NCBI GenBank assembly: GCA_944391425.1
Contig: CALXTO010000001.1
Coordinates: 11,066 to 75,065 of the forward strand
DNA: 64,000 nt
From: an uncultured Alphaproteobacteria bacterium
Lineage (GTDB): Bacteria > Pseudomonadota > Alphaproteobacteria > RF32 > CAG-239
Direction of reading: 5' to 3'
Part shown: piece after piece, positions 6,252-58,910 of the stretch
Position numbering within the stretch: the first letter of the stretch is position 1
Layout: each line of letters opens with the position of its first letter
Translations under genes and position numbers: made by a program
Notes under the pieces: generated by a model
What the model was told of the DNA's origin: nothing
Database searches by the model: none
The model's input: only the letters and a program-made list of their open reading frames with translations

Positions 6252-6380
6252 TTTTATTCTCCGCGCAAAAAATGTAATTGCGGAATTGAAAAAAACAACC
6301 TGTCCGGTTTTTTACCAATGATTAAACTTTAAGACCTATTATTTATTTTGAGCGGAGTTAAACATAGGAAAGGGAAAAAG

Positions 6381-7541
6381 ATGGCAAAACGTTTTATTCT
6401 TAACGAGACCAGCTACCACGGGCACGGGGCGGTTAATGAAATCGTTACCGAAGTGAGGTCCCGCGGATTTAAAAAAGCATTGATTGTGACGGATGCCGAC
6501 CTGGTAAAATTCAAGGTTGTTAAAAAAGTTACGGATTTGCTCGACAAGAACAAGCTTCCTTATGAGGTTTTTGACAAAGTGAAAGCCAATCCCAGCGTGG
6601 AAGTTGTTCAGGATGGCGTTAAGGCATTTAAAAAAGCCAAGGCCGATTATATGATTGCCGTTGGCGGGGGATCTCCTCAGGATACGGCCAAAGGAATCGG
6701 CATTATCATTAATAATCCCGAGTTTGCCGATGTCGTTTCTCTGGAAGGCGTTGCGCCGACCAAAAACAAGAGCGTTCCGGTAATTGCGGTGGCTACTACG
6801 GCCGGAACGGCAGCTGAGACGACTATTAATTATGTGATTACAGATGAGAAGAAACGCCGGAAATTTGTCTGTGTTGATCCGCATGATATTCCGGTGGTAG
6901 CGATTGTTGATCCAGATATGATGTCATCTATGCCCAAGGGGCTGACTGCGGCGACCGGCATGGACGCGCTGACGCATGCAATTGAAGGCTATACGACGCA
7001 GGGGGCATGGGAATTGGCTGATACTCTGAATCTGAAAGCGATTGAGCTGATTTCCAAAAATTTGCGCAAAGCGGTTGAAAATGATCCGGACGGGCGCGAA
7101 GGCATGGCTTTGGGGCAATATGTTACCGGCATGGCTTTTTCCAATGTCGGTTTGGGCGTGGTGCACGGCATGGCACACCCGCTTTCGGCTTTTTATGATA
7201 CGCCGCACGGTGTGGCAAACGCAGTCTTATTGCCGTATGTGATGGAATTTAACGCGCCTTATACAGGCACAAAGTTTCGCGAGATTGCCCGAGCTATGGG
7301 CGTTAAGAAAGTGGATGAAATGAAACAGGCCGAATATCGCGAAGCGGCTGTTAAGGCCGTTAAAAAACTGTCAAAAGATGTCGGTATTCCCAAAACTCTC
7401 AAAGATATCGGGGTTAAAAAAGAAGATTTGGAAGCATTGGCAGAGGCGGCGATGGCCGATGTCTGTACGGGGGGAAATCCACGTCCTTGTTGCAAGGAAT
7501 TGGTTTGGGAAGTTTATAAAAAAGCATATAACGGCAAATAG
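6381..7541 (+). CDS. fucO: iron-containing alcohol dehydrogenase, lactaldehyde reductase-like
   Basis: From MAKRFILNETSYHGHGA onward it is collinear and highly similar to E. coli FucO as I remember it (GGGSPQDT, TTAGTAAE, DPHDIP, HGVANA motifs). The ATG at 6381 is preferred over the upstream track start. Confidence 0.8.
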   Translation: MAKRFILNETSYHGHGAVNEIVTEVRSRGFKKALIVTDADLVKFKVVKKVTDLLDKNKLPYEVFDKVKANPSVEVVQDGVKAFKKAKADYMIAVGGGSPQDTAKGIGIIINNPEFADVVSLEGVAPTKNKSVPVIAVATTAGTAAETTINYVITDEKKRRKFVCVDPHDIPVVAIVDPDMMSSMPKGLTAATGMDALTHAIEGYTTQGAWELADTLNLKAIELISKNLRKAVENDPDGREGMALGQYVTGMAFSNVGLGVVHGMAHPLSAFYDTPHGVANAVLLPYVMEFNAPYTGTKFREIARAMGVKKVDEMKQAEYREAAVKAVKKLSKDVGIPKTLKDIGVKKEDLEALAEAAMADVCTGGNPRPCCKELVWEVYKKAYNGK

Positions 7542-8006: not shown

Positions 8007-8588
8007 ATGCTTGATTTGGGAATAAAAAAATTTGAAAGATTCCGGCTTCCGGAAGAAATTATTGGCGAAAAAATTGTTTTGAAACGCCGGGCACATGAGC
8101 ATGATACCGCATTGTTTGCGTTGATAGACGGCTCTCGCGAGATTCTGCGCGAATTTTTATTTTGGGTTGATGACACGCAGAGTGTTGAAGACGTAAAAAA
8201 AGTAACGGATATTTTTGCAAAGAACTGGGACGAGTGCAACTCTTTTGAATATGTGTTTTTGGACAGACAGAGCGGAAAAATGGTCGGTGCCGGCGGGATT
8301 CATACGGTTTGTTATATGAACCGCATGGCCGAGTATGGTTATTATCTGGACAAAGACGCACGCGGCAACGGGTATGCCAGCGAATTTGTGCAGTTGATGG
8401 AAAAAGAGCTTTTTGCCAGAGGAATTCACCGCCTGGTTATTGAGTGTGATGAGAAAAATGCGGCATCGGCTGCCGTAGCTCAAAGAAACGGCTTCTTGTT
8501 TGAAGGAGTACTGCGAGATGCTAAATATGCATACGGAACCTATCGCAATGAGATGGTTTTTGCTAAGATAAACGGAGAGGACCGATGA
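8007..8588 (+). CDS. GNAT N-acetyltransferase (RimJ/RimL-like)
   Basis: Acetyltransf_3-like sequence (RGNGYASEF..., ENAASAAVAQRNGF). Start placed at the ATG at 8007 just after the panD stop. The track start at 7965 lies inside panD. Confidence 0.7.
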   Translation: MLDLGIKKFERFRLPEEIIGEKIVLKRRAHEHDTALFALIDGSREILREFLFWVDDTQSVEDVKKVTDIFAKNWDECNSFEYVFLDRQSGKMVGAGGIHTVCYMNRMAEYGYYLDKDARGNGYASEFVQLMEKELFARGIHRLVIECDEKNAASAAVAQRNGFLFEGVLRDAKYAYGTYRNEMVFAKINGEDR

Positions 8589-9556
8589 AAAACATTTTGG
8601 TTATGGGCGGCGCCGGTTATATCGGTTCGCATACGGTAAGACATTTGCAGGAACATGGCTATGGTTGTATCGTCGCGGACAATTTGATTTACGGACACAG
8701 AGAGGCTGTATCTGCATCGTCTTTCGAGTTGGCGGATTTGGCCGATAAGGCTTCTCTCAAGGCAGTCTTTGACAAATATCGGATTGATGCCGTGGTTCAT
8801 TTTGCAGCGTTTACCTATGTCGGGGAAAGTGTGGAAAATCCGCGGAAATATTACGAAAATAATGTTGTCGGAACGTTGAACCTGTTGGATGTCATGCTGG
8901 ATCATGATGTTAAAAAAATTGTTTTTTCCAGCACTTGCGCTACTTATGGTAATCCGCAATATATGCCGTTGGATGAAAAACATCCGCAGGCGCCGATTAA
9001 TCCGTACGGACGGAGTAAGTTTGTTATTGAAAAAATTTTTGAAGATTATGGCCGTGCCTATGGTTTAAAATATACTGCTTTGCGTTATTTTAATGCGGCC
9101 GGAGCATCCAAAGACGGACAAATCGGTGAGAGCCATAATCCGGAAACCCATCTTATTCCGCTGGTTTTGAAGGCGATTAAAGGCGAACGGGACTGCATCA
9201 AAGTGTTCGGAACTGATTATGATACACCGGATGGAACCTGTTTGCGCGATTATGTACATGTAGAGGATTTGGCGGCGGCGCACCGGCTGGCTTTGGAAAA
9301 ACTTGACGAATTTCAGGGCTTTTTGAATTTGGGGACGGGGATACCGACTTCTGTTTTGGAGATAATCAGGGCTGCGGAAAAAGTAAGCGGACGGAAATGT
9401 CCGGTTGTTTATGAAAAACGCCGCGCCGGAGATCCTGCCGTTTTGTATGCTGCTAACGAAGAAGCCCGTAGGGTTTTGGGGTGGAAACCCGGGTATACAG
9501 ATATTGAAGAGATTATTCGCACGGCATGGAACTGGGAAATGAACCGTAAGTTTTAG
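8585..9556 (+). CDS. galE: UDP-glucose 4-epimerase
   Basis: 323 aa. GGAGYIGSH Rossmann motif, YGRSK (YxxxK) catalytic motif, overall GalE length. ATGA overlap with the upstream gene. Confidence 0.9.
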   Translation: MKNILVMGGAGYIGSHTVRHLQEHGYGCIVADNLIYGHREAVSASSFELADLADKASLKAVFDKYRIDAVVHFAAFTYVGESVENPRKYYENNVVGTLNLLDVMLDHDVKKIVFSSTCATYGNPQYMPLDEKHPQAPINPYGRSKFVIEKIFEDYGRAYGLKYTALRYFNAAGASKDGQIGESHNPETHLIPLVLKAIKGERDCIKVFGTDYDTPDGTCLRDYVHVEDLAAAHRLALEKLDEFQGFLNLGTGIPTSVLEIIRAAEKVSGRKCPVVYEKRRAGDPAVLYAANEEARRVLGWKPGYTDIEEIIRTAWNWEMNRKF

Positions 9557-36512: not shown

Positions 36513-36530
36513 CCGCTGTATTCGCTGATG

Positions 36531-36606
36531 GGTGCGTAGCTCAGTTGGTAGAGCAACTGACTCTTAATCAGTGGGTCTGGGGTTCGAACCCCCACGCGCC
36601 TACCAG
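36531..36606 (+). tRNA. tRNA-Lys (anticodon CTT)
   Basis: Hand-folded. Acceptor GGGTGCG/CGCGCCT, D stem GCTC/GAGC, anticodon stem ACTGA/TCAGT with loop CTCTTAA, T arm TGGGG-TTCGAAC-CCCCA, encoded ACCA. Confidence 0.95.
36591..36606 (+). repeat. direct repeat, left copy (last 16 nt of tRNA-Lys)
   Basis: CCCCACGCGCCTACCA recurs exactly at 36828-36843 (offset 237). Confidence 0.9.
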
Positions 36607-36845: not shown

Positions 36846-36873
36846 AAAAGCCTGCTTTTTTTGCAGGCTTTTA
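36846..36873. terminator. hairpin terminator after the partial tRNA-Lys copy
   Basis: AAAGCCTGC (36848-36856) / GCAGGCTTT (36864-36872) stem with a T7 loop. It also abuts the stop of the minus-strand GT2 gene. It is probably the ancestral tRNA-Lys terminator and acts bidirectionally. Confidence 0.6.
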
Positions 36874-37806
36874 TTTTGCTTTGAATGTGAATGTTTTATT
36901 GAATAGCTCCAATGTATATGTTTTGCTGCCCAGCAATTTAGTGCGGGATAAGCTGATGAAGTTTTTTATTTTGAAATAGTTTTTTGTTTTTTTCATGTGT
37001 TTGAGGATTTTTGCTTTATCACTGCTATGGCTAAGTTCATACATTAGAGTCTGCTTTTGCATTTGTTTCATCTTGTTCTTTTGATGAATAGTGTTGTTGC
37101 CGTGGATGCGATATGCAAACAGTATTTTGTCTAGATACTTGAATTTGCCGATTTTTGATAATTGCAGCATCATATAAAGGTCTTCCAACGGTGCTTCCGT
37201 TCTAAACACGAAGCGGTCAAGCGCCGTTTTGCGGATGCAGTAGCCGTTGGGAATGTAATTTCCCTTTAACAGAGAATAATAATCGCCAAAGTTTTTTCCG
37301 TTGAAATCAACGTCACGGCGGTGTTTTTTCCAGTATGAAGACACCGTTTTGTGTTCCGCTCCGTGATAAGGATGCAAATGCTGTCTGGCATCCCAGCCGG
37401 CAATTTTAGAAGCGGCGTCAATAATTTGATTGTCGCCGACAACTAAAACGTAATCTGGATTTTGTTCCAGAAAACCAACTTCTTCGGAGATGGCTTCCGG
37501 TTTGGCGATATCATCCGAAGCAATCATATAAATATATTTTCCCTCGGATTTTGCCAAAAGACGATTGATTGTCGTGCATAGCCCGGCGTTGGGCTGAGTT
37601 TCAAAGCTGAACTTTTGAAAACGTCGACAGCATAGCGGTTCCAGTTCTCTTATTTTTTGTGCAGTGCAATCGGAAGAGCCGTCATCTATAATGATCAGTT
37701 CTATATTATCATAAGTTTGATTTATAATAGAAAGTATCGTTTCGGCAACATATTTTTCGTGGTTATATGCTGCAATGATAACGGACACCAAACTATTTGT
37801 AGGCAT
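36871..37806 (-). CDS. family 2 glycosyltransferase
   Basis: 311 aa. [40 protein letters not shown] is a classic GT2 N-terminus with a DDG motif. Confidence 0.88.
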
Positions 37807-38881
37807 TTACAATGTCCACCAGCTGTTGTATTTCCGTATCGGTCATAACCGGGCTTATCGGCAGTGATATAATTTCACTGTGAATTTTTTCGCTGATTGG
37901 GTAGCTGCGGGTGTTCCATTCAGTATAAGCAGGTTGTTTATGCGGCGGAGTTGGATAATGAATAAGCGTTTGTACGCCGTTATCCGTAAGATATTTTTGA
38001 AAGCGTTCCCTTTCCGGCGTCCTGACGGCAAATACATGCCAAACATGTGCTTTTTCATCATAAGTCTGCGGCAGGGTTATCAGCGGGTTTTTGATATTTT
38101 GACGATAATATTCGGAAATTTGCCGGCGTTTTTGATTGTCGGCATCCAGATATTTTAATTTAACATCCAAAACTGCAGCCTGAATTTCATCCAGGCGAGA
38201 ATTTACACCTTTATAGAGGTTATGGTATTTTACATCTGAACCATAATTTGCCAGAGCTTTGATTTTGTTGTACAATTCTTCATCATTGGTTGTTACGGCA
38301 CCGCCATCGCCCAAACAACCGAGGTTTTTGCCCGGATAGAAAGAAAATCCCGCGGCATCGCTTAAATTTCCGGTCCGGCGTCCCCGGTATTCCGCGCCGT
38401 GTCCCTGTGCGGCATCTTCAATAACTTTTAATTTATATTTTTGAGCCAGTTGCCAGATTTTTTCCATCTGTACGGCTTGTCCGTAAAGGTGGACAACCAT
38501 AATAGCTTTGGTTCGGGGTGTAATTTTCTCTTCAATCAAGTCGGGATTAATGTTGTAAGTATTGATGTCCGGTTCGACAAGCACCGGAGTGGCGCCGTTT
38601 TGAGAAATGGCCAGGATGCTGGCAATGTAAGTGTTGGAAGGAACAATGATTTCGTCCCCTGCCCCAAATCCGTAAGCGCGGATAATCAGCGTAAGCGCAT
38701 CAAGGCCGTTGGCAACGCCCCATGCATGTTTTACACCGCAGTAATCGGCAAAATTTTGCGCAAATTTTTTGTTTTCATCTCCCTGCAGATACCATCCCTT
38801 ATCAAGGATTGTTTTGATCCGAGTGTCTATTTCTACACGAAAACGGTTGTTTATTTTTTCCAAATCTAAAAATTTAATCAT
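37793..38881 (-). CDS. DegT/DnrJ/EryC1/StrS-family sugar aminotransferase
   Basis: 362 aa. PLP-dependent sugar aminotransferase layout with the [10 protein letters not shown] lysine motif. Confidence 0.88.
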
Positions 38882-38913: not shown

Positions 38914-40311
38914 CTATTTTTCATTAAATAGGGTGTCTAAAATTTCTTTTTCTTTACTTAAAGAATGATCCATCCGATTAAGTGTGTACAATGCGCCGGA
39001 GAAATGAAACCATGTTTTATTATTTTGAGGGTCTATTTTATCCTGTGTAAACGAAAAGCCGTAACAATCTGATTTTTGAAAATCCGCTTTTATTTTCCTA
39101 GTCCAATAAACCATGGAAAATCCACTGGTAGGAATGTGTATTTTTTCCAACATTTCCTTTCTCAGCAAATAAGGATAGCTGAGTATTTTTCCTCCGTTTT
39201 GAAGAAAATTGTATAAATCATCCCATAATGTCGGGTTATGTGGAATGGTGGTTGCCCAATCGTAAATATCGGTTGCGATGACAATCGCTTTTAAATTATC
39301 TTTATTATGCAGGGGTATTGGGAAAAATATCCAGTCAACCCAGATATCTGTTTTTGTTCCTAAATCTTCTGCATATTTTCCGGTGTTATCATAATCGTTG
39401 AAACGGATGACAATATCATGTCCGTCAATTTCTTTTCCTGTCTTTTTTCCGTTTTGTTGCGGACCATTGCCGATGATAGCCACAGTCTTATTTTGGATCA
39501 GTTTTTCATAGGTGTTGGCATTTTCATTTATTTTCAATGCGTTGTATATTGCATTTGCTTTAAAAAATATATCATCTTTATATCCTAAGTCATATGCAAA
39601 AGATGATAACAACAAATGCTTTTTTATATTTTCCATGCCAAAGTTTTTTTCGTAATAGTGAAAAATCTTTTCAGCTAAAGAATATTGTTCTTTATATAGG
39701 CAGAGGTTAAAATATCTGCCCCAAAACCAAATTCCATAATTGTTAAAAATATCATTATCAATTTCCTCTTTGACGACTTTCAGCCAATCATTTTCAAAAT
39801 CATGTGCCGCCAATAAAGCGTTCAATAATTTTATTTTGCTCGCGAAAGTATCAATATCTTTATTGATAAAATCAGCGTAAATTTGAGCATATTGAGATGA
39901 AGTTATTCCTCCGGTTACTTTATACAACTCATCTATTATATGAGATAATTCAGTTGAAAAAATTTCTTTTAAATGACCACACTGAGGTGTTTGAAAAAAA
40001 GAACGTTCCAGCGCATTACCAAAGAGAGAATTTGTTCTTAGAAAGTCATGCTCAGGAAGCATCTGTTTTATAATATCAGGAAAAAGTTCTTTCAGAATAA
40101 GGATGTTTTTTATATCTGCAATTTGAGAGTTGACAGTGTTGGCAAAGTTATCCAGTTTGTTATTTAAAATATGATTACTCTCTTGGATATCCACTTTGGC
40201 AGATTCCGTGGATAACCCTTTGGCAACTATTTGTTTTTGCAAATGTTTCCAAATTTTGTATTTATAATATGTCAAAAATGATACTTTTTTACCTCGTATT
40301 TTTTTAGTCAT
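38914..40311 (-). CDS. two-domain protein: N-terminal helical region plus C-terminal GT29-like (eukaryote-type) sialyltransferase domain
   Basis: aa 277-325 [46 protein letters not shown] aligns with sialyl motif L (human ST6Gal1 ...[30 protein letters not shown], from memory). aa 393-419 PTSGFSM...CYGF resembles motif S. aa 449-454 HSLSKE fits motif VS (H-x4-E). Confidence 0.65.
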
Positions 40312-40328: not shown

Positions 40329-41414
40329 TTATTTTTTAGATTGCTTGTTCTTTTGGAGCTTTCCCTTTAAATAATTGGTAATTGGTCGCTCAATACATAT
40401 GGCTGCACCCCCCCCCACAACAATACAAAAAGTTGTAAAAAGAAGTAACAGATGGACATCGTTTTTTATCAGATTTGTTTCTAAGATATATTTGCGTAAA
40501 ACAGCAATACAGGGAAAATGCATAACGTAAATTGCATAGGAAAAGCTGCCTAAAACACCAAAAATTTTATGGTTAAACAACTGGGAAAAGAATCCTTTAT
40601 TTTGAAGAAATAAAAATAAAAGAATGATGAATAGCAGCTGATAATATATTTCTTCTGAAAATTTGGGGTTATGCCAAGCAACTGATTTAATAAAATATAA
40701 AAAGATAAAAATTTCGGTGACAGATATAAGTATTTTTTTCCCCAGCCATGTTTTTTCATTATCTAAAGAAAAGGAGCTATAAATAATAGCACACAGTATT
40801 CCCAAGCTCATACCGCCAAGTGCCTCAATCATTCCTACTGTAAGTCGCAGGGATGGAAGAGCTATTGCGCCATATCCTTTTCCATTGGGAGAGTAAGTCA
40901 AAATGATAAAGCAAAAAAATGAAAAAAAGGCACAGATGTTTATTATTTTTTGTCTGCTATTTTGTTTAATTAAACAATAGAAAAAAATACTTGTAAAAAA
41001 CAAAACACAAATAAACCATGTTGCCGGATTATTGGAACCGCCTTTTACAATTCCCGTTCCAGCGCTGATAAAGAAGATGTTGAGGGTGTCTAAATATTTA
41101 TTGTAAGTTCCCAGAAAAATGAAAGGTACAAAAGAGATTGCCATGAGCGGCCACAATCGAATAACTTTTTGCAAAATAAAGTCGGAAAGCTTTTCTGGCT
41201 TAGAGATATTGGTTATATATAAAAAAAAGCCACTTAAAATAAAGAAAGCGTAAACGATATTCGGACCAATAAGTCCACCTTTTACAGCTAAATTTTGTAG
41301 AAAAGAAGTGTTATGAAAATTATTTAAAACTCCAACTACATGATAATACATAATCATTATTGCAAACATAAATCTTAAAAAATCTATGTTATATAATCTT
41401 TTTGTTGGGGACAT
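40329..41414 (-). CDS. acyltransferase family 3 (membrane O-acyltransferase)
   Basis: 361 aa, about 10 TM. The N-terminal IDFLRFMFAIMIMYYH motif is typical of Acyl_transf_3. Confidence 0.85.
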   Translation of the reverse strand: MSPTKRLYNIDFLRFMFAIMIMYYHVVGVLNNFHNTSFLQNLAVKGGLIGPNIVYAFFILSGFFLYITNISKPEKLSDFILQKVIRLWPLMAISFVPFIFLGTYNKYLDTLNIFFISAGTGIVKGGSNNPATWFICVLFFTSIFFYCLIKQNSRQKIINICAFFSFFCFIILTYSPNGKGYGAIALPSLRLTVGMIEALGGMSLGILCAIIYSSFSLDNEKTWLGKKILISVTEIFIFLYFIKSVAWHNPKFSEEIYYQLLFIILLFLFLQNKGFFSQLFNHKIFGVLGSFSYAIYVMHFPCIAVLRKYILETNLIKNDVHLLLLFTTFCIVVGGGAAICIERPITNYLKGKLQKNKQSKK

Positions 41415-42814: not shown

Positions 42815-43987
42815 TTAGCTAAGTGCGATTTTTCTTGATAATTCTCGAATAAGATCATGTCCGTCCCAATAAGGGCCGATATCCATTGCTTTTCCTATAG
42901 GAACAATCCGATCTATGCCGCGGACATTATTATTGATAATAGCCTGCCGAAAATCTTTTTCAGAAAGACCATAATGAGTCACTGTCTGGAACTTCTCGGT
43001 GGTAACCGAAAATAACTCCTCCCAGGAACGAAGCGAGTGTTCATAAAAATAGCCGCCATTTCCTCGGTTTTTAATTATTTCCGGAGTTAATTTGTTTATT
43101 TCAATACGATATGCCAGGTTTTTAAACCTGTTTAGTTTTTGAAAGTTTGATAAATCGACAGCATCTATGCAGGCATGTGTGTATTTATCTACAACGACGG
43201 CATCCTGCAAATTATATTTGACAGATGCTTCTTTAATAACGGCATTCCAAAAGATTTCTCTTGCTCGCAATGAATCATTTTGCCATAAAATAATCTGCGG
43301 GGAAGAACAAGCATTTTGATCCATCAAGTAAGTATCATTATAAAAGTTTTCGGCTAACCTTTTGATGTTATCGGGGGTTGTTTCCAGAATTTTCTGTCCG
43401 TCAATTATACATACCGAATATCTGTCTGCAAAACTTATGTCTACGCATCGCGGCTGACAAGGCATGCTTTTTACCATTGCAATAGTTTTGTCGCCGCCCC
43501 AAATCATTCGCGCATCAGCCAAAGAACATAATTGTGCTGTAATATCGTTGTCACGAGGATATTTAATGAAAGCTGTTCGCTTTTCTATTTCTGGGTACCG
43601 AGGTAAAATTTCTTTTAACAGATTAGAGATGATGTCAATTTGCGGAAATTCTTTACTGGGTAACCGAACAATATTTGCATTTCCTGCCAACAGAGAAAAA
43701 AAGTAAGAAAAAGCAAAATTTATAGGGATATTTGATGGGGTGATATGGAAACATAATCCCCGCCCCATGCGGTCTTCTGTGTTTCCGAAGTCTGATTTTA
43801 ATTTTGTGATATTGGCTTTTCTAGCCCAAAAAGCCAGTGCAGATAAATCAGGATATGTTCTGACTATCGGAGATTTTAACAAATTCGCCGATATTTCTGA
43901 TAAAAATTCGCAGACATTCGTATCGTACGTTTGAAAGGCAGTTCTATTCAGTTCTGAATTACCAATTAAATATTTAACGTCGCTCAT
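42815..43987 (-). CDS. LuxC-like acyl-CoA/acyl-ACP reductase
   Basis: CFHITPSNIPINFAFS and the overall aldehyde-dehydrogenase-like LuxC family layout. The ATG at 43987 overlaps the LuxE-like stop (ATGAGCGACGTTAA), implying translational coupling. Confidence 0.7.
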   Translation of the reverse strand: MSDVKYLIGNSELNRTAFQTYDTNVCEFLSEISANLLKSPIVRTYPDLSALAFWARKANITKLKSDFGNTEDRMGRGLCFHITPSNIPINFAFSYFFSLLAGNANIVRLPSKEFPQIDIISNLLKEILPRYPEIEKRTAFIKYPRDNDITAQLCSLADARMIWGGDKTIAMVKSMPCQPRCVDISFADRYSVCIIDGQKILETTPDNIKRLAENFYNDTYLMDQNACSSPQIILWQNDSLRAREIFWNAVIKEASVKYNLQDAVVVDKYTHACIDAVDLSNFQKLNRFKNLAYRIEINKLTPEIIKNRGNGGYFYEHSLRSWEELFSVTTEKFQTVTHYGLSEKDFRQAIINNNVRGIDRIVPIGKAMDIGPYWDGHDLIRELSRKIALS

Positions 43988-45050
43988 AAGTATCACTACA
44001 CCCCCGTATTTCTGCATTTTTAATTCGCCCGTGTATTTTGAAATATTTCCCTTTTCTTCCGCAAGGACAATCATCAATCCCTAAGATTTCCCCTTCATCT
44101 TCTGTCAGAATGATATGTCCCGGATATGATGACGGTAGGACAGATAACAATTCAATTAGCCCTTTTTGTCCTATTGGGGCTTCTGAAAAATCATATGGAC
44201 ACCGAATGATAACATCTGAATAATTTGAACAATGCATATGGCCATGTTCACATTCAACAAAAACAGAGCCTAATTGTTCAGCCATTCCATAATAATTGTA
44301 AACTTTTACGTTTCCTAAACACTCTTGGACGTTACGATTATATGTTGCCGTATCAACAGCTTGGTCTTTAAGCTTCTTCCAGCCGCCGATATGAAATAAA
44401 ATTCCGTTTTTCAGGTTGAATTTTTTTCCTCTTTTTTTCAATTCCTGTATAACAAACTGCCAAATCATATAAGTATACCCGAACATGAGGATTGTTTCAT
44501 TTTGGTGTTTTTCCAAAAATTCTTCTATTTTTGAAATATTTATTTGCATATCAGCATCCAATGCATAGGTAATATCTTTACCAAAAATTGAAAAGCCTAT
44601 GATGCCGGCGCCGCGAGCTGAATACATTGAACGGTCTTTTTTTATCATTTCTGTATCAAGAAGCAAAAGAGGAAGTCTTTGTTTTCCAATAAAAGAAGAT
44701 ATTATTTCATTAAGCGTTTTTGTTTGATTATGCACGTTTTCGGCATCTAATAGAATTTTAGAAACGGCCTGCCCTGATGTTCCCGATGATGTTAACGTCT
44801 TAACGATTTTTTCTTGCGGAACACTTTTCAAAGTATATGTTTTAAATAGCCTGACAGGAATAAACGGTAATTCACTTACGTCTATCGAATGTGTGATGTC
44901 ATAATTCAGAGCATCAAGTATTTTTTTGTATTCTATACAATTCTTGTAGTGAAAATGCGTTAACCTGCTCAAAATTTCTTTTAAAATTTCATTTTTTTGT
45001 TGCTGATTTAAGCTATATGGTGGTATTGCAAACAGTTCTTCTAGTGTCAT
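43974..45050 (-). CDS. LuxE-like acyl-protein synthetase / adenylate-forming enzyme
   Basis: 358 aa. LTSSGTSGQ P-loop-like motif and the length and arrangement of the LuxE family. Confidence 0.7.
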   Translation of the reverse strand: MTLEELFAIPPYSLNQQQKNEILKEILSRLTHFHYKNCIEYKKILDALNYDITHSIDVSELPFIPVRLFKTYTLKSVPQEKIVKTLTSSGTSGQAVSKILLDAENVHNQTKTLNEIISSFIGKQRLPLLLLDTEMIKKDRSMYSARGAGIIGFSIFGKDITYALDADMQINISKIEEFLEKHQNETILMFGYTYMIWQFVIQELKKRGKKFNLKNGILFHIGGWKKLKDQAVDTATYNRNVQECLGNVKVYNYYGMAEQLGSVFVECEHGHMHCSNYSDVIIRCPYDFSEAPIGQKGLIELLSVLPSSYPGHIILTEDEGEILGIDDCPCGRKGKYFKIHGRIKNAEIRGCSDTYERR

Positions 45051-45718
45051 TTATGGATTACCTCTTTTAAAAAGATATCTTGCGGCGAGCTAAAATTTGC
45101 ACCTAAGAAGGCATATAAATTCATTACCGGTGTGTTCATTGAACTTATACGCCCCTCAATTTTCTTATATCCCTGATTTCTTGCCCAAAGGCATGCTTTT
45201 GCGTACAATCCGAGAGCTGCTCCGGTTGTACGATATTTTTCTTCCACGGCTGCTAAATTTATAAATGTGCTATCGGGAGAAGTTTCCTGTAATGCTAAGA
45301 AACCTATGATCTGATTCTTAAAACGACAGATTAACACTTCAGATAAATTATTAATCCATTCTCTTAAAACTAAAGCTGCTGTGTTGGAGTTGCAGTTCGG
45401 AGTTATGTGAAAGCGCCTATCATATTTAAAGTTGCGAATGGCAATTTCCAAAATCTCAGATTTGTATTCTGTACTAAATTCTATCGGAAGCCGTATCATC
45501 TTTTCTAAATCGGCTGAAATTCTGGATAAAAAGATCTCTGTTTTGATTGTCCTGTCAACCCAAACAAAACCTTGTTCCTGCAAAAGCTTAATTGTTGCCG
45601 GTTCAGAAGAAATTTGGAGCCTTATTACATCAAACATGGATATATCAGAAAGAACTGGTATTTCATTGGCAATATCCAGAAGCACTAAATTTTCATATTT
45701 TTTTATTTGTTGAGTCAT
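45047..45718 (-). CDS. GNAT-fold acyltransferase
   Basis: 223 aa. The C-terminal half has a GNAT core (VEEKYRTTGAALGLY...NTPVMNLYAFLG). 4-nt overlaps with both neighbours. Confidence 0.6.
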   Translation of the reverse strand: MTQQIKKYENLVLLDIANEIPVLSDISMFDVIRLQISSEPATIKLLQEQGFVWVDRTIKTEIFLSRISADLEKMIRLPIEFSTEYKSEILEIAIRNFKYDRRFHITPNCNSNTAALVLREWINNLSEVLICRFKNQIIGFLALQETSPDSTFINLAAVEEKYRTTGAALGLYAKACLWARNQGYKKIEGRISSMNTPVMNLYAFLGANFSSPQDIFLKEVIHK

Positions 45719-47118
45719 GCAGATTTATCCAATTCTTTGTATAGTGTTTTGCCTGCCTCATTTTTGGGAATTTGTTCAATGTATTTAACCGTAAAGGCAA
45801 CAAAATTTAAATTGCTTGTTTCCGCAACAAACTTTTGTACTTCTTTTATTTTTTGATTATCTGTGATATAGATACACATTGCATCATCTATCCCGGCACA
45901 TGCACAATCCAGTGTCTGGAAACGAGTTTTGATCAATCTCTCTGTTTCATCCAGATTAACTCTGTTTCCAAAAATTTTTAAAAATCTTTTTTTCCTGCCT
46001 ACAATATAAAAATATCCGTCCGCATCAAATTTTGCCATATCTCCGGTAACCAGGCGACCGTTAAATTCATCTTCTTTGCATAAATCATTTCCGTCTTCAG
46101 CGTATCCTAAAGCGACATTTTTACCTTGATATACCAATTCTCCTATAGTTTCAGGCTGGGTAATTGTTTTTCCCTCTGCATCAACTAATGAAAAAAGCCC
46201 CCCCGGAATAGCAATTCCCATAGATCCGATTTTTGCCAGAGATTGTTCCGGAGGTAGGTATCCCATTCTGGCTGTCGCTTCCGTTTGTCCATACATTACC
46301 ACAAAGTTTTTGTTGTTTTCTTTAGCATATTGCGCAAATTTCTCATGCAATTCAGGAGACAACTTCCCTCCCGCCTGTGTCAATGTCTGCAAACACGGGA
46401 GTTTACGTCTTTGAAAACGTAATTTGTCAAGCATTTCATAGGTATACGGTACTCCGGAAAGCGAGGTTACCTGATATTTTTCTATCAGTTCCCAAAATTC
46501 TCTTTGTATGATGGTGTAAGGACATAAGACGATACCTGCTCCCTGCATTAGATGACTATTAATAACGGATAGCCCAAATGTGTAGTTCATAGGCAGGGAA
46601 GTTATCGCCCTTTCTGCAGAGGTTATTTTTAAATAATCAATGATTGATTCTGTGTTATTGAGAATATTTTCATAACTTAATCTTACAAATTTGGGACTTC
46701 CCATTGAGCCTGAAGTTGTAAGTAACAGAGCCAGTTTGCCATATATTGGGTAATAATGGGGCCATGTTAATTCTATAAGAGAATATCCCCATTTATTAAA
46801 TATTTCTTTTCCGCTGATGTTCAAAGGAAGTTTTTTATTAGCCCAGAGGTAGCGGGGATGATACAAATTACAAAAATTACTCAGCAATTTGTGATCAATA
46901 TGTTCATCCAGCATTAAGGGAACATTATTATGCTCTATAGCCGATAAATAACCTACCAGAGAACCTAATGTATTGGAGCAAAGATTAAATATAAGGCTGT
47001 GAGGTTCAATATATCTGCTTAATTCCTGGCAGTATTCTGAAAGCTCTTGGTATGTTATTTCCTTACCATCAGGTTCAATGACAGCTATGCTCTGTTTAAA
47101 CTTATTAAAATTCCACAT
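45715..47118 (-). CDS. AMP-dependent synthetase/ligase (adenylation enzyme)
   Basis: LLTTSGSMGSPK (A3 core), YGQTEA (A5), GDMAKFDADGYFYIVGRKK (A7/A8). The ATG at 47118 overlaps the ACP stop. The track start at 47151 is a TTG inside the ACP gene. Confidence 0.85.
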   Translation of the reverse strand: MWNFNKFKQSIAVIEPDGKEITYQELSEYCQELSRYIEPHSLIFNLCSNTLGSLVGYLSAIEHNNVPLMLDEHIDHKLLSNFCNLYHPRYLWANKKLPLNISGKEIFNKWGYSLIELTWPHYYPIYGKLALLLTTSGSMGSPKFVRLSYENILNNTESIIDYLKITSAERAITSLPMNYTFGLSVINSHLMQGAGIVLCPYTIIQREFWELIEKYQVTSLSGVPYTYEMLDKLRFQRRKLPCLQTLTQAGGKLSPELHEKFAQYAKENNKNFVVMYGQTEATARMGYLPPEQSLAKIGSMGIAIPGGLFSLVDAEGKTITQPETIGELVYQGKNVALGYAEDGNDLCKEDEFNGRLVTGDMAKFDADGYFYIVGRKKRFLKIFGNRVNLDETERLIKTRFQTLDCACAGIDDAMCIYITDNQKIKEVQKFVAETSNLNFVAFTVKYIEQIPKNEAGKTLYKELDKSA

Positions 47119-47341
47119 TGTATTTAGCCAGAATTTCTTTTCCTTTTTCAAAAGAATTCAAATCAACGATATCGTCGGGCTCCATCATGATGTCAAAACT
47201 TTCTTCCAAAGCGGCAATTAATCCCATGTGTCCGACAGAATCCCAAGCGTCAATTCCTTGAAATTTTAAATTAATTGCTTGGTTTTCATCTATTTCGAAT
47301 GTATCCATAAATGCTTTTGTATATTTTTCCAAATTAGTCAT
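47105..47341 (-). CDS. acyl carrier protein
   Basis: 78 aa, acidic. GIDAWDSVGHMGLI contains the DS phosphopantetheine attachment motif at the expected position. Confidence 0.85.
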   Translation of the reverse strand: MTNLEKYTKAFMDTFEIDENQAINLKFQGIDAWDSVGHMGLIAALEESFDIMMEPDDIVDLNSFEKGKEILAKYNVEF

Positions 47342-47358
47342 TTTTTTCTCCTTATTGT

Positions 47359-48108
47359 TTAGTTTCTTCCGCCATCAACTCGAATGATTTGTCCCGTGAT
47401 ATATCGTGATGCATCTGAAGCCAGAAATACGGCTGCGTCAGCTATTTCTTCAGGCTTTCCAAGGCGATTGAGATATGTATTATTTTGATCTTTCTGCAAC
47501 ACATCCTCAGACATATCTTTGATAAGCGGTGTTTGAGTTATACCTGGGGCCAGACAGTTTGCCCTGATATTGTAATGTCCTAATTCTTTAGCTAAAGATT
47601 TGGTCATGGAATAAACTGCAGCTTTACTGGCTCCATATAATGTTTCTCCCTCAACGCCATCTAATGCAGCCATTGAAGACATATTGATTATGGACCCGCC
47701 CTGAGGCTGGCGGATCATTAATTTTGATACTAACTGTGTCAAATAAAATACCGCAAAAAAGTTTACTTCAAACAATTGCCTTGCCATATCCATGGAACTC
47801 ATTTGCAGTAAAGCTTCTTTTAATATTCCGGCATTGTTTATTAATACATCAACGGGACGTTTGTTGCTACGAATTTTCATAACCATATTTTTTACGGCAT
47901 CGTAATCCGTCAAGTTTACGGAGAATGTTTCTATTGTAACGCCATTGTTTTGTGAAATCTGTGAAACAAATTCTGCAAAATCGTCCGAAATATTTATATC
48001 ACAAGCCCAAATATTAGCTTTTTGTTCTGCAAAAGCTTTGACCATTGCTCTGCCCATGCCGCCACAACAGCCGGTGAGTAAAACATTTTTGTTTAACAAT
48101 CCAGACAT
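47359..48108 (-). CDS. short-chain dehydrogenase/reductase (FabG-like)
   Basis: 249 aa. TGCCGGMG cofactor motif, NNAG, and the S...YGASK catalytic triad. Confidence 0.88.
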   Translation of the reverse strand: MSGLLNKNVLLTGCCGGMGRAMVKAFAEQKANIWACDINISDDFAEFVSQISQNNGVTIETFSVNLTDYDAVKNMVMKIRSNKRPVDVLINNAGILKEALLQMSSMDMARQLFEVNFFAVFYLTQLVSKLMIRQPQGGSIINMSSMAALDGVEGETLYGASKAAVYSMTKSLAKELGHYNIRANCLAPGITQTPLIKDMSEDVLQKDQNNTYLNRLGKPEEIADAAVFLASDASRYITGQIIRVDGGRN

Positions 48109-48638
48109 TATTTACAAAACCTTTCTATATACTTTTTGTTTTTCTCATAGTTTTCTTTAGTGAGATTAAAATAAATAAGTTCGTTATCTTGGGCGGTTAT
48201 GGTACATCCCCACATTTTGAAATAATTAATCATATTAGAATTATTGTGACGTGTATCTGTCCGTATATTTTGCGTTCCGAGAACATTATAAGCGTAATTT
48301 TTTAACAGCATATCTCCCTCTATACCTTCTTGAATCCTAGAAGTTTGAGACATTACCCATCGTCCCGTACAAACACTGTCATCCTGAATATCATAGATAC
48401 TTAGGCATCCTAAAGGGAGGCCTTCTTTGTTTTCGACGATAAAATAGTATTCATCATCCAAGGTCTGATATCTTTTTATATATTCTATTTGCTTTTGAAG
48501 ATCCGGCGAAGTTTTATGAAGGAAACGAGCCCCTTTTCCCTCTGTTCTTAATTTTAAAATAAATGCAGCATCATCTGTCGTTACTTCACGCAAATTGACA
48601 TATTTTCCAATTAAAGCAGTTTGTTCAATTTTCTTCAT
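48108..48638 (-). CDS. GNAT N-acetyltransferase (RimJ/L-like)
   Basis: 176 aa, Acetyltransf_3-like. TAATG overlap with the SDR gene. Confidence 0.7.
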   Translation of the reverse strand: MKKIEQTALIGKYVNLREVTTDDAAFILKLRTEGKGARFLHKTSPDLQKQIEYIKRYQTLDDEYYFIVENKEGLPLGCLSIYDIQDDSVCTGRWVMSQTSRIQEGIEGDMLLKNYAYNVLGTQNIRTDTRHNNSNMINYFKMWGCTITAQDNELIYFNLTKENYEKNKKYIERFCK

Positions 48639-49047
48639 TTTTATCTTTCTTAAAAGTACATATGTTCAAGTATTCGTTATAATCTGAAATATATTCAGAA
48701 GCATCATATAGGTGATCAGATAGGATTAATAAGGTTGTTTGAGGAGAAAAATCATACATCTCTTTCCATACCATATTGTTCAGCCACAATCCTTGCTCCG
48801 GTGTGTTCAAAGTGTATATTTTCTCTTCATGAGGAAGGCGTATTTTTACTTTGCAGCTACCTTGCAGAGGAATAAGGACGAATTGGGATTTTTTGTTGGC
48901 GTGGCAGCCGCGCGGAGAATCGTTTTGCGTATTATAGATGTAGAAAACTCTTTTAATCTCAAAAGGGATGTCTTTATTGTTTTCAATGGCAACAAGCGAG
49001 CCTCTTGCATCACCTCTGACGATGAAATTTAAAAGTCTATAATTCAT
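48625..49047 (-). CDS. WxcM/FdtA-like cupin (sugar 3,4-ketoisomerase), paralog 2
   Basis: 140 aa. DARGSL...IPFEIKRVFYIYN...PRGCHANKK...L.G is the FdtA_WxcM signature. Confidence 0.8.
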   Translation of the reverse strand: MNYRLLNFIVRGDARGSLVAIENNKDIPFEIKRVFYIYNTQNDSPRGCHANKKSQFVLIPLQGSCKVKIRLPHEEKIYTLNTPEQGLWLNNMVWKEMYDFSPQTTLLILSDHLYDASEYISDYNEYLNICTFKKDKNEEN

Positions 49048-49319: not shown

Positions 49320-49712
49320 TTATATCTCTTTTTTAAATTGAGAATAATCTCTTATATAATCTGTTTCATCATAAATTTCGGAAGCAAGTACCATAACAAC
49401 GCAATCTGGCGAAAAATTCGTAAATTCCCGCCATACGTTTCCTGATATCAAAAGACCTTGTTCGGGTGAGTTAAAATGAAAAGTCTGTCTTTGAGAGCCG
49501 TCATCTACAGTGAAGTCACAGCTCCCTGAAGGACAAAAAATGACTTGCTGTAATTTTCGATGCGAATGTTTGCCGCGAATGGCATCTTTGGAAGTTCCGT
49601 AAATGTAGTAAACTCGTTTGATATTAAATGGAATATTGCCGTTGCTTTCTAAATTTATAACAGAGCAACAGTCTTTATTCTCAGCGCTAAAATTGATTAA
49701 ACAGTAACTCAT
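49320..49712 (-). CDS. WxcM/FdtA-like cupin (sugar 3,4-ketoisomerase), paralog 1
   Basis: 130 aa. IPFNIKRVYYIYGT...IRGKHSHRKLQQVIFCPSGS shows the same fold signature as paralog 2. Confidence 0.8.
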   Translation of the reverse strand: MSYCLINFSAENKDCCSVINLESNGNIPFNIKRVYYIYGTSKDAIRGKHSHRKLQQVIFCPSGSCDFTVDDGSQRQTFHFNSPEQGLLISGNVWREFTNFSPDCVVMVLASEIYDETDYIRDYSQFKKEI

Positions 49713-57272: not shown

Positions 57273-58910
57273 CTAGAATAATCTTAGAATCGATTGGGCG
57301 GCTTGGGAGGCTAAAGATAAGGAATTGGTTGCCAGCTGCTGTCTGGTTTGTAAAGCCAGCATATTGGCGCTTTCTTCATTCATGTCTGCCAGGGTCAGCT
57401 TATCCGCGCCTTCTTCCAGCACGTTGATTAAATTCTCGGTAAAGTCCTGACGATTAAGCACAATGTTATAATAACCGCCCAACTCTGATGACATACTGCG
57501 GATTTGGTTCAAGGCCGAGGATATTTCCTTTAGGGATTGGGCGATGTCTTCAATAGTATTCCACTCCGTCGTTGTCAGTCCGAGAGCGGCGGATGAAGCA
57601 TCTTTACCCCTGACATCCAGCCAGGCACTGCGGTTCTCGTTAAAGGTGACTTTCAAATCCTGTTCCTGCAGCAAATTGACGCCTTTATAAGAACTGTCTT
57701 TGATTAAGGAATCATACTGAAACAAAATATTTTGATACTGTTGTTCTTCTGCCGAGGACAAAGAACTTTCTGCTATGGCTTCCTGAATGGCGGTCAGAAA
57801 TTGGCTGCTGTCATAGTTGTCTATACCGGTGACGTCTTCGCGAGATTTAGTGCTGGTGGTGTGGTATGTATATGTTTGTGTTCCGGTATAAGGATCATCG
57901 GGATTGAAATTGCTGGTTGAATCTGTGGAGTTGAAAGTCAAATCTTTAAGATTAACGATCTTAGCGGATTTGCCGTCTTCCGAAACCCAGGTGACAATAC
58001 CGACTGCAGTTTTGCTGTCATCGTAATCATCGGCCGAACCATAGGTTAAATCCGAGTACATCACGTCACCGATTTGCGGCGCTGAAGCTGCATCTGTCGG
58101 ATTGAAATAATTTTCTAAAAATTGGAAACATCGGACGTAGTGGTAGAGGAGGCTCCTAATATTGCCGTTTCGGTCCCCATTATCCATATGGAATAGCCAT
58201 GAACTGGAATTGTGATACTCAGAAGAAGACCAATAATATTCATTCGCTAAAGTTGTGCAATCTACGCCTAAATTTTTTAAGGTTGCAAGGGCGTCATTAA
58301 TGACGTTTTTATTTTCACCACTTGCTCCTGTTGTCCCGCGTCCATCGGTGATATTACCGGCTGTTGTACCATACATTTCCATTAACTCACCAACAGCGGG
58401 CAGATACCATTGTCCCTGACCGAAATTGGCATCATCTTTATCCACGCCCGGCGCATAAAACTGATTAGCTGCCGTCGCTGCCAAGGCGTCGGCACCAATC
58501 TGATCCAGCATCGCCTGTGTGTTAGCGCGGCCGTCAAAAAGGCTGGTGTCGCGGATGGCCGCGCCATCACTGATGCCGCTCGGCTGCCGAATATAAATTC
58601 TTTCCGCGCTTTCCAGCGCCTGGGTGGCAACAGCCGAAGCCTGTTCCAGAAAATCCGCTGCCGTTTCCAGAGATGTGGTCGCCGACTTAATGGTAGAAAC
58701 AGCCTGCCCCATAGAGTCAAGCAAGGCATCCAAGTCGCTGGCGCGATTGCTTAAGCTGCGCGCCGTGTAATAAGAGGAAGGATTATCAATTGCCGAATTG
58801 ACTTTTTTACCGGTGGACAATCTGTTCTGGGTAGAATCAACCTGCCTGCTGATATTCTGCAGGCTCAGCAGATTGCTCCTCATGCTTGCGGTCAGGCTTA
58901 CTTTATCCAT
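57273..58910 (-). CDS. flagellin with a large central insert
   Basis: 545 aa. N-terminal D0/D1 (LLSLQNISRQVDSTQNRLSTGKKVNSAIDNP) and C-terminal D1/D0 (LALQTRQQLATNSLSLASQAAQSILRLF) flagellin helices. About 270 aa lie between them. Confidence 0.9.
   Translation of the reverse strand: MDKVSLTASMRSNLLSLQNISRQVDSTQNRLSTGKKVNSAIDNPSSYYTARSLSNRASDLDALLDSMGQAVSTIKSATTSLETAADFLEQASAVATQALESAERIYIRQPSGISDGAAIRDTSLFDGRANTQAMLDQIGADALAATAANQFYAPGVDKDDANFGQGQWYLPAVGELMEMYGTTAGNITDGRGTTGASGENKNVINDALATLKNLGVDCTTLANEYYWSSSEYHNSSSWLFHMDNGDRNGNIRSLLYHYVRCFQFLENYFNPTDAASAPQIGDVMYSDLTYGSADDYDDSKTAVGIVTWVSEDGKSAKIVNLKDLTFNSTDSTSNFNPDDPYTGTQTYTYHTTSTKSREDVTGIDNYDSSQFLTAIQEAIAESSLSSAEEQQYQNILFQYDSLIKDSSYKGVNLLQEQDLKVTFNENRSAWLDVRGKDASSAALGLTTTEWNTIEDIAQSLKEISSALNQIRSMSSELGGYYNIVLNRQDFTENLINVLEEGADKLTLADMNEESANMLALQTRQQLATNSLSLASQAAQSILRLF

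Follow-up and report, generated by a model that had tools for sequence, protein, structure and literature searches.

A reduced ACP–ligase–LuxE–LuxC cassette that probably supplies a hydroxyacyl group for a 3-amino sugar in an uncultured alphaproteobacterium

What role might relatives of LuxE and LuxC, proteins known from lux systems, play when they are encoded among genes for an amino sugar? This question is posed by seven genes at positions 42815-48638 of a 64,000-nucleotide stretch of DNA (hereafter the window) from an uncultured Alphaproteobacteria bacterium of the CAG-239 lineage (GenBank assembly GCA_944391425.1, contig CALXTO010000001.1, positions 11,066 to 75,065). The block encodes a stand-alone acyl carrier protein (ACP), an ANL-superfamily AMP-ligase, a FabG-like short-chain dehydrogenase/reductase (SDR), a LuxE-type acyl-protein synthetase, a LuxC-type acyl-thioester reductase, and two GNAT-fold transferases. 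An earlier note on this DNA, made from the sequence alone, had proposed that these proteins assemble a short modified acyl chain on the ACP and transfer it to a 3-amino sugar. Protein families, synteny, and the association with sugar genes all support this reading. The block probably builds a small hydroxylated acyl group on the ACP, and a 3-amino-3,6-dideoxy sugar in a surface glycan is the probable recipient.

All seven open reading frames (ORFs) are of full length and lie on the minus strand, and each element that the earlier note had listed was recovered at its position by Pfam and NCBIfam searches (Table 1). Junctions within the block are either overlaps of 1-47 nt or a 17-nt gap, which indicates that the block is one coupled unit. 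Two start sites can be read in more than one way, since LuxC might begin at 43987 (390 aa) or 44077 (420 aa), and the ligase might begin at 47118 instead of 47151. The gene order of the block is repeated in about 130 loci from other species, a recurrence that is far beyond chance.

Table 1. Features of the block and the surrounding island, listed from the highest coordinate to the lowest
Feature	Coordinates	Strand	Evidence or remark
FdtA-family 3,4-ketoisomerase, paralogue 1	49320-49712	minus	PF05523, E=5e-46; H-x-H motif (GKHSHRK)
FdtA-family cupin, paralogue 2	48625-49047	minus	PF05523, E=2.4e-40; variant H-x-N motif (GCHANKK)
FdhC/QdhC-like GNAT (GNAT3), candidate N-acyltransferase for a dTDP-3-amino sugar	48108-48638	minus	Pfam Acetyltransf_3
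FabG-like SDR	47359-48108	minus	adh_short_C2, E=3.7e-60
Stand-alone ACP, 78 aa	47105-47341	minus	Translation; weak NCBIfam ACP match
ANL-superfamily AMP-ligase, presumed ACP loader	45715-47151	minus	PF00501, E=1.5e-39
WecD-fold two-domain GNAT	45047-45718	minus	Predicted fold and NCBIfam WecD model
LuxE-type acyl-protein synthetase	43974-45050	minus	PF04443, E=1.8e-53
LuxC-type acyl-thioester reductase	42815-44077	minus	PF05893, E=3e-27
Probable GT-B glycosyltransferase, 472 aa	41440-42858	minus	No Pfam match
Acyl_transf_3 membrane acyltransferase	40329-41414	minus	PF01757, E=1.9e-24
GT29-like glycosyltransferase	38914-40311	minus	PF00777, E=1.7e-12
QdtB/FdtB/WlaRG-type dTDP-3-keto-6-deoxyhexose 3-aminotransferase (DegT)	37793-38881	minus	PF01041, E=3e-115
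GT2 glycosyltransferase, last island gene	36871-37806	minus	PF00535, E=2.9e-25
tRNA-Lys	36530-36605		Adjoins the island end at GT2

The residues expected of working enzymes and carriers are retained. In the ACP, which is 53-78% identical to ACPs of cassettes elsewhere, the WDSVGHM motif that holds the presumed phosphopantetheine-bearing serine is identical in 34 of 34 homologues. The SDR keeps TGxxxGxG, NNAG, and YxxxK, matches FabG best among NCBIfam models (TIGR01830, 218 bits, below the cut-off of 298), and is 42-48% identical to the SDRs that relatives carry before their transketolase or ACP genes. The ligase, whose gene overlaps that of the ACP, preserves TSGSMGSPK, YGQTE, TGD, GRKK, and a C-terminal GK, and its nearest relatives of solved structure are luciferases and oxalate-CoA ligases (E ~1e-23). 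LuxE aligns end to end with the LuxE chain 7xc6_E, such that its C-terminal RGCS stands opposite the KGCS containing the self-acylated cysteine; RGC is kept in 51 of 52 homologues and is invariant in one alignment (A1). Similarly, LuxC aligns with Photobacterium LuxC (7xc6_A), placing DQNACSS opposite DQQACFS, the catalytic-cysteine motif of that structure (PMC9157457), and the motif is kept in 48 of 50 homologues.

The likely acceptor sugar can be read from the neighboring genes. The block is accompanied by two FdtA paralogues and a DegT aminotransferase, as the earlier note had described, with the correction that the DegT gene is three genes (~5 kb) away from LuxC. The closest solved relatives of DegT are PDB entries 7n63 (E=2e-162) and 5u1z (E=5e-151), both labeled 'putative aminotransferases' and one of which we take to be Campylobacter WlaRG, followed by QdtB (3frk, E=2.6e-131). 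DegT homologues that are 73-79% identical are located after the cassette in three other loci and in one species of the same genus (G016). Genes rmlA and rmlB are missing from the window, as had been reported, and its sole RmlB-like match (8585-9556) reaches 134 bits where the cut-off requires 365. A search of the remaining genome (1.47 Mb, 100% complete) placed both rmlA (428 bits) and rmlB (473 bits) on another contig (C21) with scores above the curated cut-offs. Thus, the substrate for FdtA is available and the product should be a dTDP-3-amino-3,6-dideoxyhexose. RmlA, RmlB, the FdtA-family isomerases, and the QdtB-type 3-aminotransferase together make the pathway to 3-amino-3,6-dideoxygalactose (Fuc3N) or 3-amino-3,6-dideoxyglucose (Qui3N) complete in this genome.

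The proposed link to such a sugar is further strengthened by one of the GNATs, since residues 15-174 of the 176 in GNAT3 match the N-acyltransferase FdhC (PDB 5kta, E=4.1e-18), and homologues of GNAT3 lie next to FdtA or DegT in eight other loci and in G016. Members of the FdhC/QdhC family 3-hydroxybutanoylate Fuc3N or Qui3N in E. coli O103, Salmonella O55, Hafnia, and Acinetobacter (PMC4869667). The enzymes of Acinetobacter nosocomialis, Hafnia alvei, and others share with GNAT3 both the GNAT fold and a gene position beside FdtA and an FdtB/QdtB-type aminotransferase, but they draw 3-hydroxybutanoyl-CoA from general metabolism and are not accompanied by a dedicated ACP, ligase, LuxE, or LuxC. 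For the second GNAT, an AlphaFold model built from 24 homologues (predicted local distance difference test, pLDDT, 94) has the WecD structure 2fs5_A as its top Foldseek match over the full length (E=6.6e-13, TM score 0.71), and the NCBIfam WecD model matches weakly (E=1.2e-9). WecD of E. coli is a dTDP-fucosamine acetyltransferase. Searching PDB sequences with the family profile of this GNAT returned only generic GNATs, so the WecD relationship is seen solely in the fold and in the NCBIfam model. The two transferases reported by the earlier note are therefore present and of different kinds, one FdhC-like and one WecD-like, and judging from sequence and predicted structure both look like nucleotide-sugar N-acyltransferases.

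Which parts of the block belong together can be judged by how often they travel together. The gene content of relatives was compared in a close set of 50 loci, in which all ORFs were clustered, and in a distant set of 80 species; accessory families and sugar genes were confirmed by Pfam scans. In the close set, LuxE (50), LuxC (47), AMP-ligase (45), SDR (40), and ACP (34) are joined by the C and N halves of a split transketolase (37 and 35), the WecD-fold GNAT (35), ketoacyl-ACP synthase III (KAS III; 29), and a second ACP (21). The distant set holds LuxE (80), LuxC (78), AMP-ligase (77), ACP (69), SDR (59), and transketolase (41), along with DegT (36), a PglD-like hexapeptide transferase (LbH; 20), FabA-like proteins (18), NeuB (17), RmlB (12), and the WecD-fold GNAT (4). 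These counts define a universal core of ACP, ligase, LuxE, and LuxC, and in 77 of the 80 distant loci the ligase gene is next to that of the ACP. The WecD-fold GNAT is an add-on of a gut clade that includes the window copy, and within that clade it is part of the core. Glycan genes are found within 10 kb in 36 of the 50 close loci, the remainder being mostly on short contigs; relatives devoid of sugar-modifying neighbors, which the earlier note had named as contrary to its proposal, are thus not the pattern observed.

The core also bears on an alternative in which the block performs two jobs. GNAT3 and the SDR, working with the ACP and the ligase, might make and transfer 3-hydroxybutanoyl, for example by ketoreduction of ACP-loaded acetoacetate, while LuxE and LuxC act elsewhere, for instance on a carboxyl group that belongs to another sugar or to the finished acyl-sugar. 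Such a division would suit the adjacency of the GNAT3 and SDR genes with their 1-nt overlap, the 3-oxoacyl-ACP and acetoacetyl-CoA reductases that are the best family matches of the SDR, and the 3-hydroxybutanoyl transfer by FdhC, the best characterized relative of GNAT3 (PMC4869667). However, ACP, ligase, LuxE, and LuxC form a joint set in 69-80 of the 80 species, whereas SDR and GNAT3 are optional, and this joint occurrence ties LuxE and LuxC to carrier-protein chemistry instead of to a separate job. Furthermore, 3-hydroxybutanoylation of the E. coli O103 type requires no ACP or ligase (PMC4869667). On balance, a division into two jobs is considered unlikely. In favor of a dedicated acyl pathway, an outside donor is not obvious, as a thiolase search of the genome found only KAS-type enzymes and no true thiolase, which argues weakly against 3-hydroxybutanoyl-CoA from a polyhydroxybutyrate-type route.

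If the cassette has one purpose, namely to make a hydroxyacyl group for the sugar, how might its enzymes cooperate? From the gene content, catalytic residues, families, and synteny, which are directly observed, we infer a substrate, an order of steps, a choice of GNAT, and a final acyl group as follows. The presence of two separate carboxylate activators (the ANL ligase and LuxE) together with an activated acyl group as output points to a substrate with two carboxyls, which could be a diacid such as malate, succinate, or malonate. LuxE would adenylate one carboxyl and pass it by way of its C-terminal cysteine to the catalytic cysteine of LuxC, which would use NAD(P)H to reduce the acyl group to an aldehyde. 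The FabG-like SDR might then reduce this aldehyde to an omega-hydroxyl, after which the AMP-ligase would load the remaining carboxyl, destined to become the amide, onto the ACP as a thioester. On the sugar side, RmlA and RmlB would supply dTDP-4-keto-6-deoxyglucose, FdtA-family isomerization would yield the 3-keto sugar, and amination by the QdtB-type DegT would give dTDP-Fuc3N and/or dTDP-Qui3N. A GNAT would move the hydroxyacyl group to the 3-amino group, whether this is the FdhC-like enzyme, the WecD-fold enzyme, or each of them for one sugar, and the three or four glycosyltransferases of the island would use the N-acylated product. Distant loci commonly place the gene of an FdhC-like or PglD-like transferase immediately 5' of the (SDR-)ACP genes, which favors the FdhC-like GNAT as the user of acyl-ACP. 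With a limited query set, a transferase-type gene was found within 3.5 kb of the ACP in 24 of 69 loci, a count that takes in WecD-fold GNATs as well. As for the acyl group itself, a hydroxyacyl of three or four carbons (C3-C4), for example 2,4-dihydroxybutanoyl, is the best guess; malate whose distal carboxyl has been reduced to an alcohol corresponds to exactly this group, which is the Vibrio cholerae product discussed below.

A gene of the lactate/malate-dehydrogenase family (Ldh_1_N/Ldh_1_C) was observed directly after LuxC in 16 loci, nine in one set and seven in the second, and is not part of the window island. Its sequence family fits a 2-hydroxy-diacid substrate such as malate.

The earlier note had also likened the block to the tetronate genes of V. 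cholerae O1, and when the two are set side by side by gene content this analogy fits the literature (PMC4772473, PMC3441752). In the O1 antigen, perosamine is N-acylated with 3-deoxy-L-glycero-tetronate, that is, 2,4-dihydroxybutanoyl (PMC3441752, PMC4772473). The 471-aa, ATP-binding product of wbeL is required for this antigen (PMC3441752), and, according to the summary given in PMC4772473, RfbN has a LuxE domain and the tetronate pathway was proposed by Morona et al. (1995). By description, the V. cholerae wbeK-O/rfbK-O set (VC0248-VC0252) and the window share an ACP, an ANL ligase of ~470 aa, LuxE and LuxC domains, one extra reductase, and an acyltransferase. Both sets also belong to a pathway that makes a 6-deoxy-amino sugar for a surface glycan, although the sugar is a dTDP-3-amino-3,6-dideoxyhexose in the window and GDP-perosamine in V. 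cholerae. LuxC and LuxE are separate proteins in the window and are reportedly fused in RfbN, and the V. cholerae reductase and transferase are said to be an Fe-alcohol dehydrogenase (RfbM) and a hexapeptide-type enzyme (RfbO). Because the reductase and transferase families differ, the parallel is one of logic and not of strict orthology.

A second precedent comes from flagellin glycosylation islands. In Aeromonas Group II polar flagellin islands, pseH is immediately followed by orf1-5, which encode an ACP, a 3-oxoacyl-ACP reductase, an AMP-dependent synthetase, LuxE, and LuxC (PMC7874193), and an equivalent set is present in flagellin islands of Enterobacteriaceae (PMC4875605). The window has the same five-gene content without transketolase, likewise placed directly after a GNAT sugar N-acyltransferase (pseH in Aeromonas, the FdhC-like gene here). 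The Aeromonas set differs in lying among pseudaminic acid (Pse) and maf genes, whereas the window set is accompanied by Fuc3N/Qui3N genes and the additional WecD-fold GNAT. The Aeromonas flagellin glycan contains a 376.14-Da Pse derivative and a 102-Da moiety for which no explanation was offered (PMC7874193). By our arithmetic, 376.14 equals Pse5Ac7Ac (316.13) plus 60.02, and both the 376.14-Da derivative and the 102-Da moiety fit a C4H6O3 acyl group. The cassette type is therefore already known as a recurrent 'fatty-acid-like' set of flagellin glycosylation islands and of cholera O1.

The names LuxE and LuxC come from lux, and a lux-like order of reactions has to be weighed. The window proteins share both catalytic cysteines and the overall folds with the LuxC-LuxE(-LuxD) system (PDB 7xc6; PMC9157457), and presumably also the passage from carboxylate to acyl-AMP, acyl-S-LuxE, acyl-S-LuxC, and aldehyde. 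A chain built or loaded on the ACP might thus come off the carrier, be activated anew by LuxE, and yield a free aldehyde through reduction by LuxC. This aldehyde would be the real product, and it would end up either as an alcohol after further reduction or as an alkyl or acetal group on the glycan (a 'liposugar') instead of an N-acyl group. Besides the conserved cysteines, this order is favored by a thioesterase or metallo-β-lactamase (MBL)-fold hydrolase gene between ACP/ligase and LuxE in many relatives, and the Aeromonas and Enterobacteriaceae studies suggested a lipid component (PMC7874193, PMC4875605). On the other side, the window lacks a thioesterase, a ketoacyl-ACP synthase (KAS), and a dehydratase, so that chain building is not possible, and the block contains two GNATs that resemble sugar N-acyltransferases. 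Moreover, the product is solved for only one system bearing the cassette (V. cholerae O1), and it is a short hydroxyacyl amide. A closest kinship with fatty-aldehyde or lipid pathways, which the earlier note had regarded as damaging to its proposal, did not emerge either. The kinship with the characterized lux proteins is no more than remote (E=2e-16 and 5e-5), the context here is glycan synthesis, and NCBIfam equivalog scores of 37 bits for LuxC (cut-off 750) and 72 bits for LuxE (cut-off 550) indicate that the window proteins are not lux orthologues. Pfam scans of the island proteins revealed no luciferase (luxAB) or LuxD domain. A free aldehyde as the final product appears quite improbable.

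The preferred assignment, an ACP-borne hydroxyacyl group destined for the 3-amino sugar, must also contend with several contrary points. FdhC uses 3-hydroxybutanoyl-CoA as its donor and not an acyl-ACP, and the presence of two GNATs for one amino group lacks an explanation. Likeness to the V. cholerae and Aeromonas sets is one of gene content and description and not of direct sequence alignment; neither Vibrio nor Aeromonas appeared among the best 80 loci from each of two LuxE scans. The SDR and two GNATs of the window could only be functional analogues of the alcohol dehydrogenase and hexapeptide transferase that V. cholerae is said to employ. In addition, the hydrolase genes that relatives carry between ligase and LuxE fit a lux-like order equally well, and a literature search found no assay of any cassette enzyme, including LuxE and LuxC proteins from outside lux systems.

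How does the window copy compare with its relatives? A transketolase-bearing form of the cassette, common in gut Alphaproteobacteria, Gastranaerophilales, Bilophila, and Clostridia, consists of SDR, split transketolase, ACP, ligase, GNAT, LuxE, and LuxC, with or without KAS III. The ACP, ligase, WecD-fold GNAT, LuxE, and LuxC of the window are 53-79% identical to their counterparts and stand in the same order, but the transketolase pair, KAS III, second ACP, and a glyoxalase-fold gene are missing. The window copy is thus a cut-down version of a larger cassette, in which a split transketolase is usual and KAS III frequent, and no chain extension and a shorter acyl group are to be expected from it. 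One could suspect that the loss of transketolase and KAS III has left a dead cassette, with only the Fuc3N/Qui3N genes and the FdhC-like transferase still of consequence, given that 37 of 50 close relatives and G016 have transketolase genes between SDR and ACP where the window has none. This suspicion was rejected as very improbable. The ORFs are full length with intact catalytic motifs, the SDR-ACP junction is a clean 17-nt spacer, and a form without transketolase, which matches the Aeromonas five-gene set (PMC7874193), accounts for at least 31 of the 69 distant loci in which ACP and LuxE are both encoded. This recurrence makes the minimal form a regular variant and not a wreck.

Two loci are particularly informative about how such modules are combined. 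Flavobacterium plurextorum CCUG 60112 (L092), one of those without transketolase, encodes RmlB, Wza, Wzz, FdtA, FdtA, FdhC-like GNAT, ACP, SDR, ligase, LuxE, LuxC, DegT (56% identical to the window DegT), LbH, Wzx, and glycosyltransferases, which amounts to the window module minus the WecD-fold GNAT within a classical polysaccharide locus. Conversely, G016 (C1:15000-28000) has a sugar module like that of the window (DegT 77%, GT2 50%, FdtA 54%, and FdhC-like GNAT 44% identical) next to a cassette that carries KAS III, FabA, transketolase, and an MBL-fold gene. Since the same sugar module is paired with a different cassette version, sugar and acyl modules appear to have been swapped independently.

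The duplicated isomerase raises the prospect of more than one product. The two FdtA paralogues of the window are 38% identical to each other and separated by a 272-bp gap, and the second overlaps the GNAT3 gene by 14 nt. In F. plurextorum, the FdtA pair (6249-7059) shows the same division into a canonical HxH and a variant (HxY) protein, and this match between two species suggests a conserved two-cupin arrangement as opposed to a recent duplication. Campylobacter jejuni 81116 reportedly makes both dTDP-Fuc3N and dTDP-Qui3N with two such isomerases and one aminotransferase. In light of the paired isomerases and this case, it is plausible that the island yields two sugars with two acyl groups.

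A broader and more tentative view is that the semialdehyde formed by LuxE and LuxC is the branch point of a modular system, in which paired isomerases and GNATs give two N-acylated 3-amino sugars with a single aminotransferase. We regard this as possible but doubtful. In the minimal form, SDR reduction would lead to a tetronate-like C3-C4 hydroxyacyl group, such as 2,4-dihydroxybutanoyl from malate. In relatives, the split transketolase might add two carbons before ketoreduction, so that malate semialdehyde plus a C2 ketol unit would give 2,4,5,6-tetrahydroxyhexanoyl; other relatives might achieve a three-carbon extension through an in-cassette NeuB-like enzyme. A sugar on Treponema denticola flagellin carries 2-methoxy-4,5,6-trihydroxyhexanoyl (PMC13439194), and 2-O-methylation of the tetrahydroxyhexanoyl group would reproduce its carbon and oxygen pattern. 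In a scan seeded with spirochaete LuxE sequences, which gave more than 575 matches, the best 80 did not include T. denticola.

Two further variants were noticed in the survey. A gene of the NeuB family, whose members condense phosphoenolpyruvate with aldehydes, lies inside the cassette between ACP/FabA-like genes and the ligase in five loci of several phyla, with two more loci also showing such a gene; instead of an ordinary nonulosonate synthase, it may encode an enzyme that does for C3 extension what the transketolase would do for C2. Separately, nine loci, mostly from Clostridia, have two LuxE-LuxC pairs and two split transketolases, which suggests two rounds of reduction and extension or two acyl groups.

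The block is embedded in a 13-kb run of overlapping or nearly abutting ORFs on the minus strand, from 49712 to 36871, with a GC content of 30-37% between flanks of ~45%. This low-GC segment is probably a horizontally acquired surface-glycan island of which the block forms the acyl-donor part. Its 472-aa protein is 25-30% identical to a cluster that matches Glycos_transf_1 and follows GNAT3 in two other loci, and a gene homologous to that of the membrane acyltransferase (AT3) comes after LuxC in five. Promoter-like sites are not enriched across the island (48 versus 49.8 expected from shuffled sequence) and therefore give no information on operon boundaries.

What the island glycosylates is suggested in part by what it lacks. 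Pfam scans of the island proteins detected no Wzx, Wzy, initiating transferase, or ABC exporter, which fits cytoplasmic flagellin glycosylation or extension of lipooligosaccharide, and so the target may be flagellin or lipooligosaccharide instead of an O-antigen polymer. A flagellin gene is located 8 kb from the island, yet with 13 or more flagellin paralogues in the genome this proximity is weak evidence for a link. These paralogues, 79-86% identical to the 545-aa flagellin of the window (57273-58910), are distributed over ten contigs. Unlike the Aeromonas-type flagellin islands, the genome yielded no NeuB- or PseB-type gene in tblastn searches. No flagellin link emerged by way of G016 either, where unrelated genes (OmpH, PH, MORN, TSCPD) separate LuxC from a flagellin gene close by.

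The distribution of LuxE provides a measure of how mobile the cassette has been. Its relatives number in the thousands, with 68-99% identity in the best 120 clusters, and in species-representative genomes the protein is matched at 60-76% identity in gut and rumen groups that include Alphaproteobacteria, Gastranaerophilales, Bilophila, Mailhella, Lachnospiraceae, Oscillospiraceae, Spirochaetia, Fretibacterium, and Succinatimonas. Two scans of species genomes with alignment-seeded LuxE profiles each confirmed at least 575-592 species genomes from many phyla, among them Erwinia amylovora, Pantoea, Kosakonia, Flavobacterium, Novosphingobium, Azonexus, Paraburkholderia, Bacteroides, Selenomonas, and Butyrivibrio. 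Copies from Lachnospiraceae share 84% identity with the LuxE of Treponema bryantii. Across phyla, LuxE identity reaches 60-79%, which points to horizontal transfer, and to judge from these comparisons exchange of the cassette between phyla is clear. Within the genus, a LuxE relative was found in just 1 of the 24 other species (G016); it is 55% identical and belongs to a differently built island.

As a genomic finding, the window is one further example of a known pattern in reduced form. N-acyl groups on surface amino sugars affect antigenicity, phage receptors, and immune recognition, and this cassette is present in at least 590 species genomes, as a rule next to amino-sugar genes, and crosses phyla in gut and rumen communities. 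The window holds its simplest natural version, with neither transketolase nor KAS III, on a well-understood sugar pathway. Because dTDP-Fuc3N and dTDP-Qui3N can be obtained enzymatically, it offers a convenient system for establishing what LuxE and LuxC do in glycan loci.

Two minor observations concern the vehicles of exchange. Phage-tail-like genes (Phage_tail_APC, Phage_T7_tail) and type I restriction-modification genes lie directly downstream of the LuxC-AT3 end in several gut Alphaproteobacteria (five loci, at ~13.4-14.7 kb in one of them), which may mark the border of a prophage or a site of exchange driven by phages. A phage collection returned a single weak match of 24% identity and hence no evidence of the cassette in known phages. 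The symbiosis-type megaplasmid pRA_T24_2 of Rhizobium anhuiense (185517-195299) carries the cassette together with a hexapeptide transferase. PGAP gives the cassette enzymes of this plasmid the generic names 'long-chain fatty acid--CoA ligase' and 'acyl-CoA reductase', and names the transferase 'acyl-ACP--UDP-N-acetylglucosamine O-acyltransferase', an annotation that hints at acyl-ACP as the donor for sugar acylation in this version.

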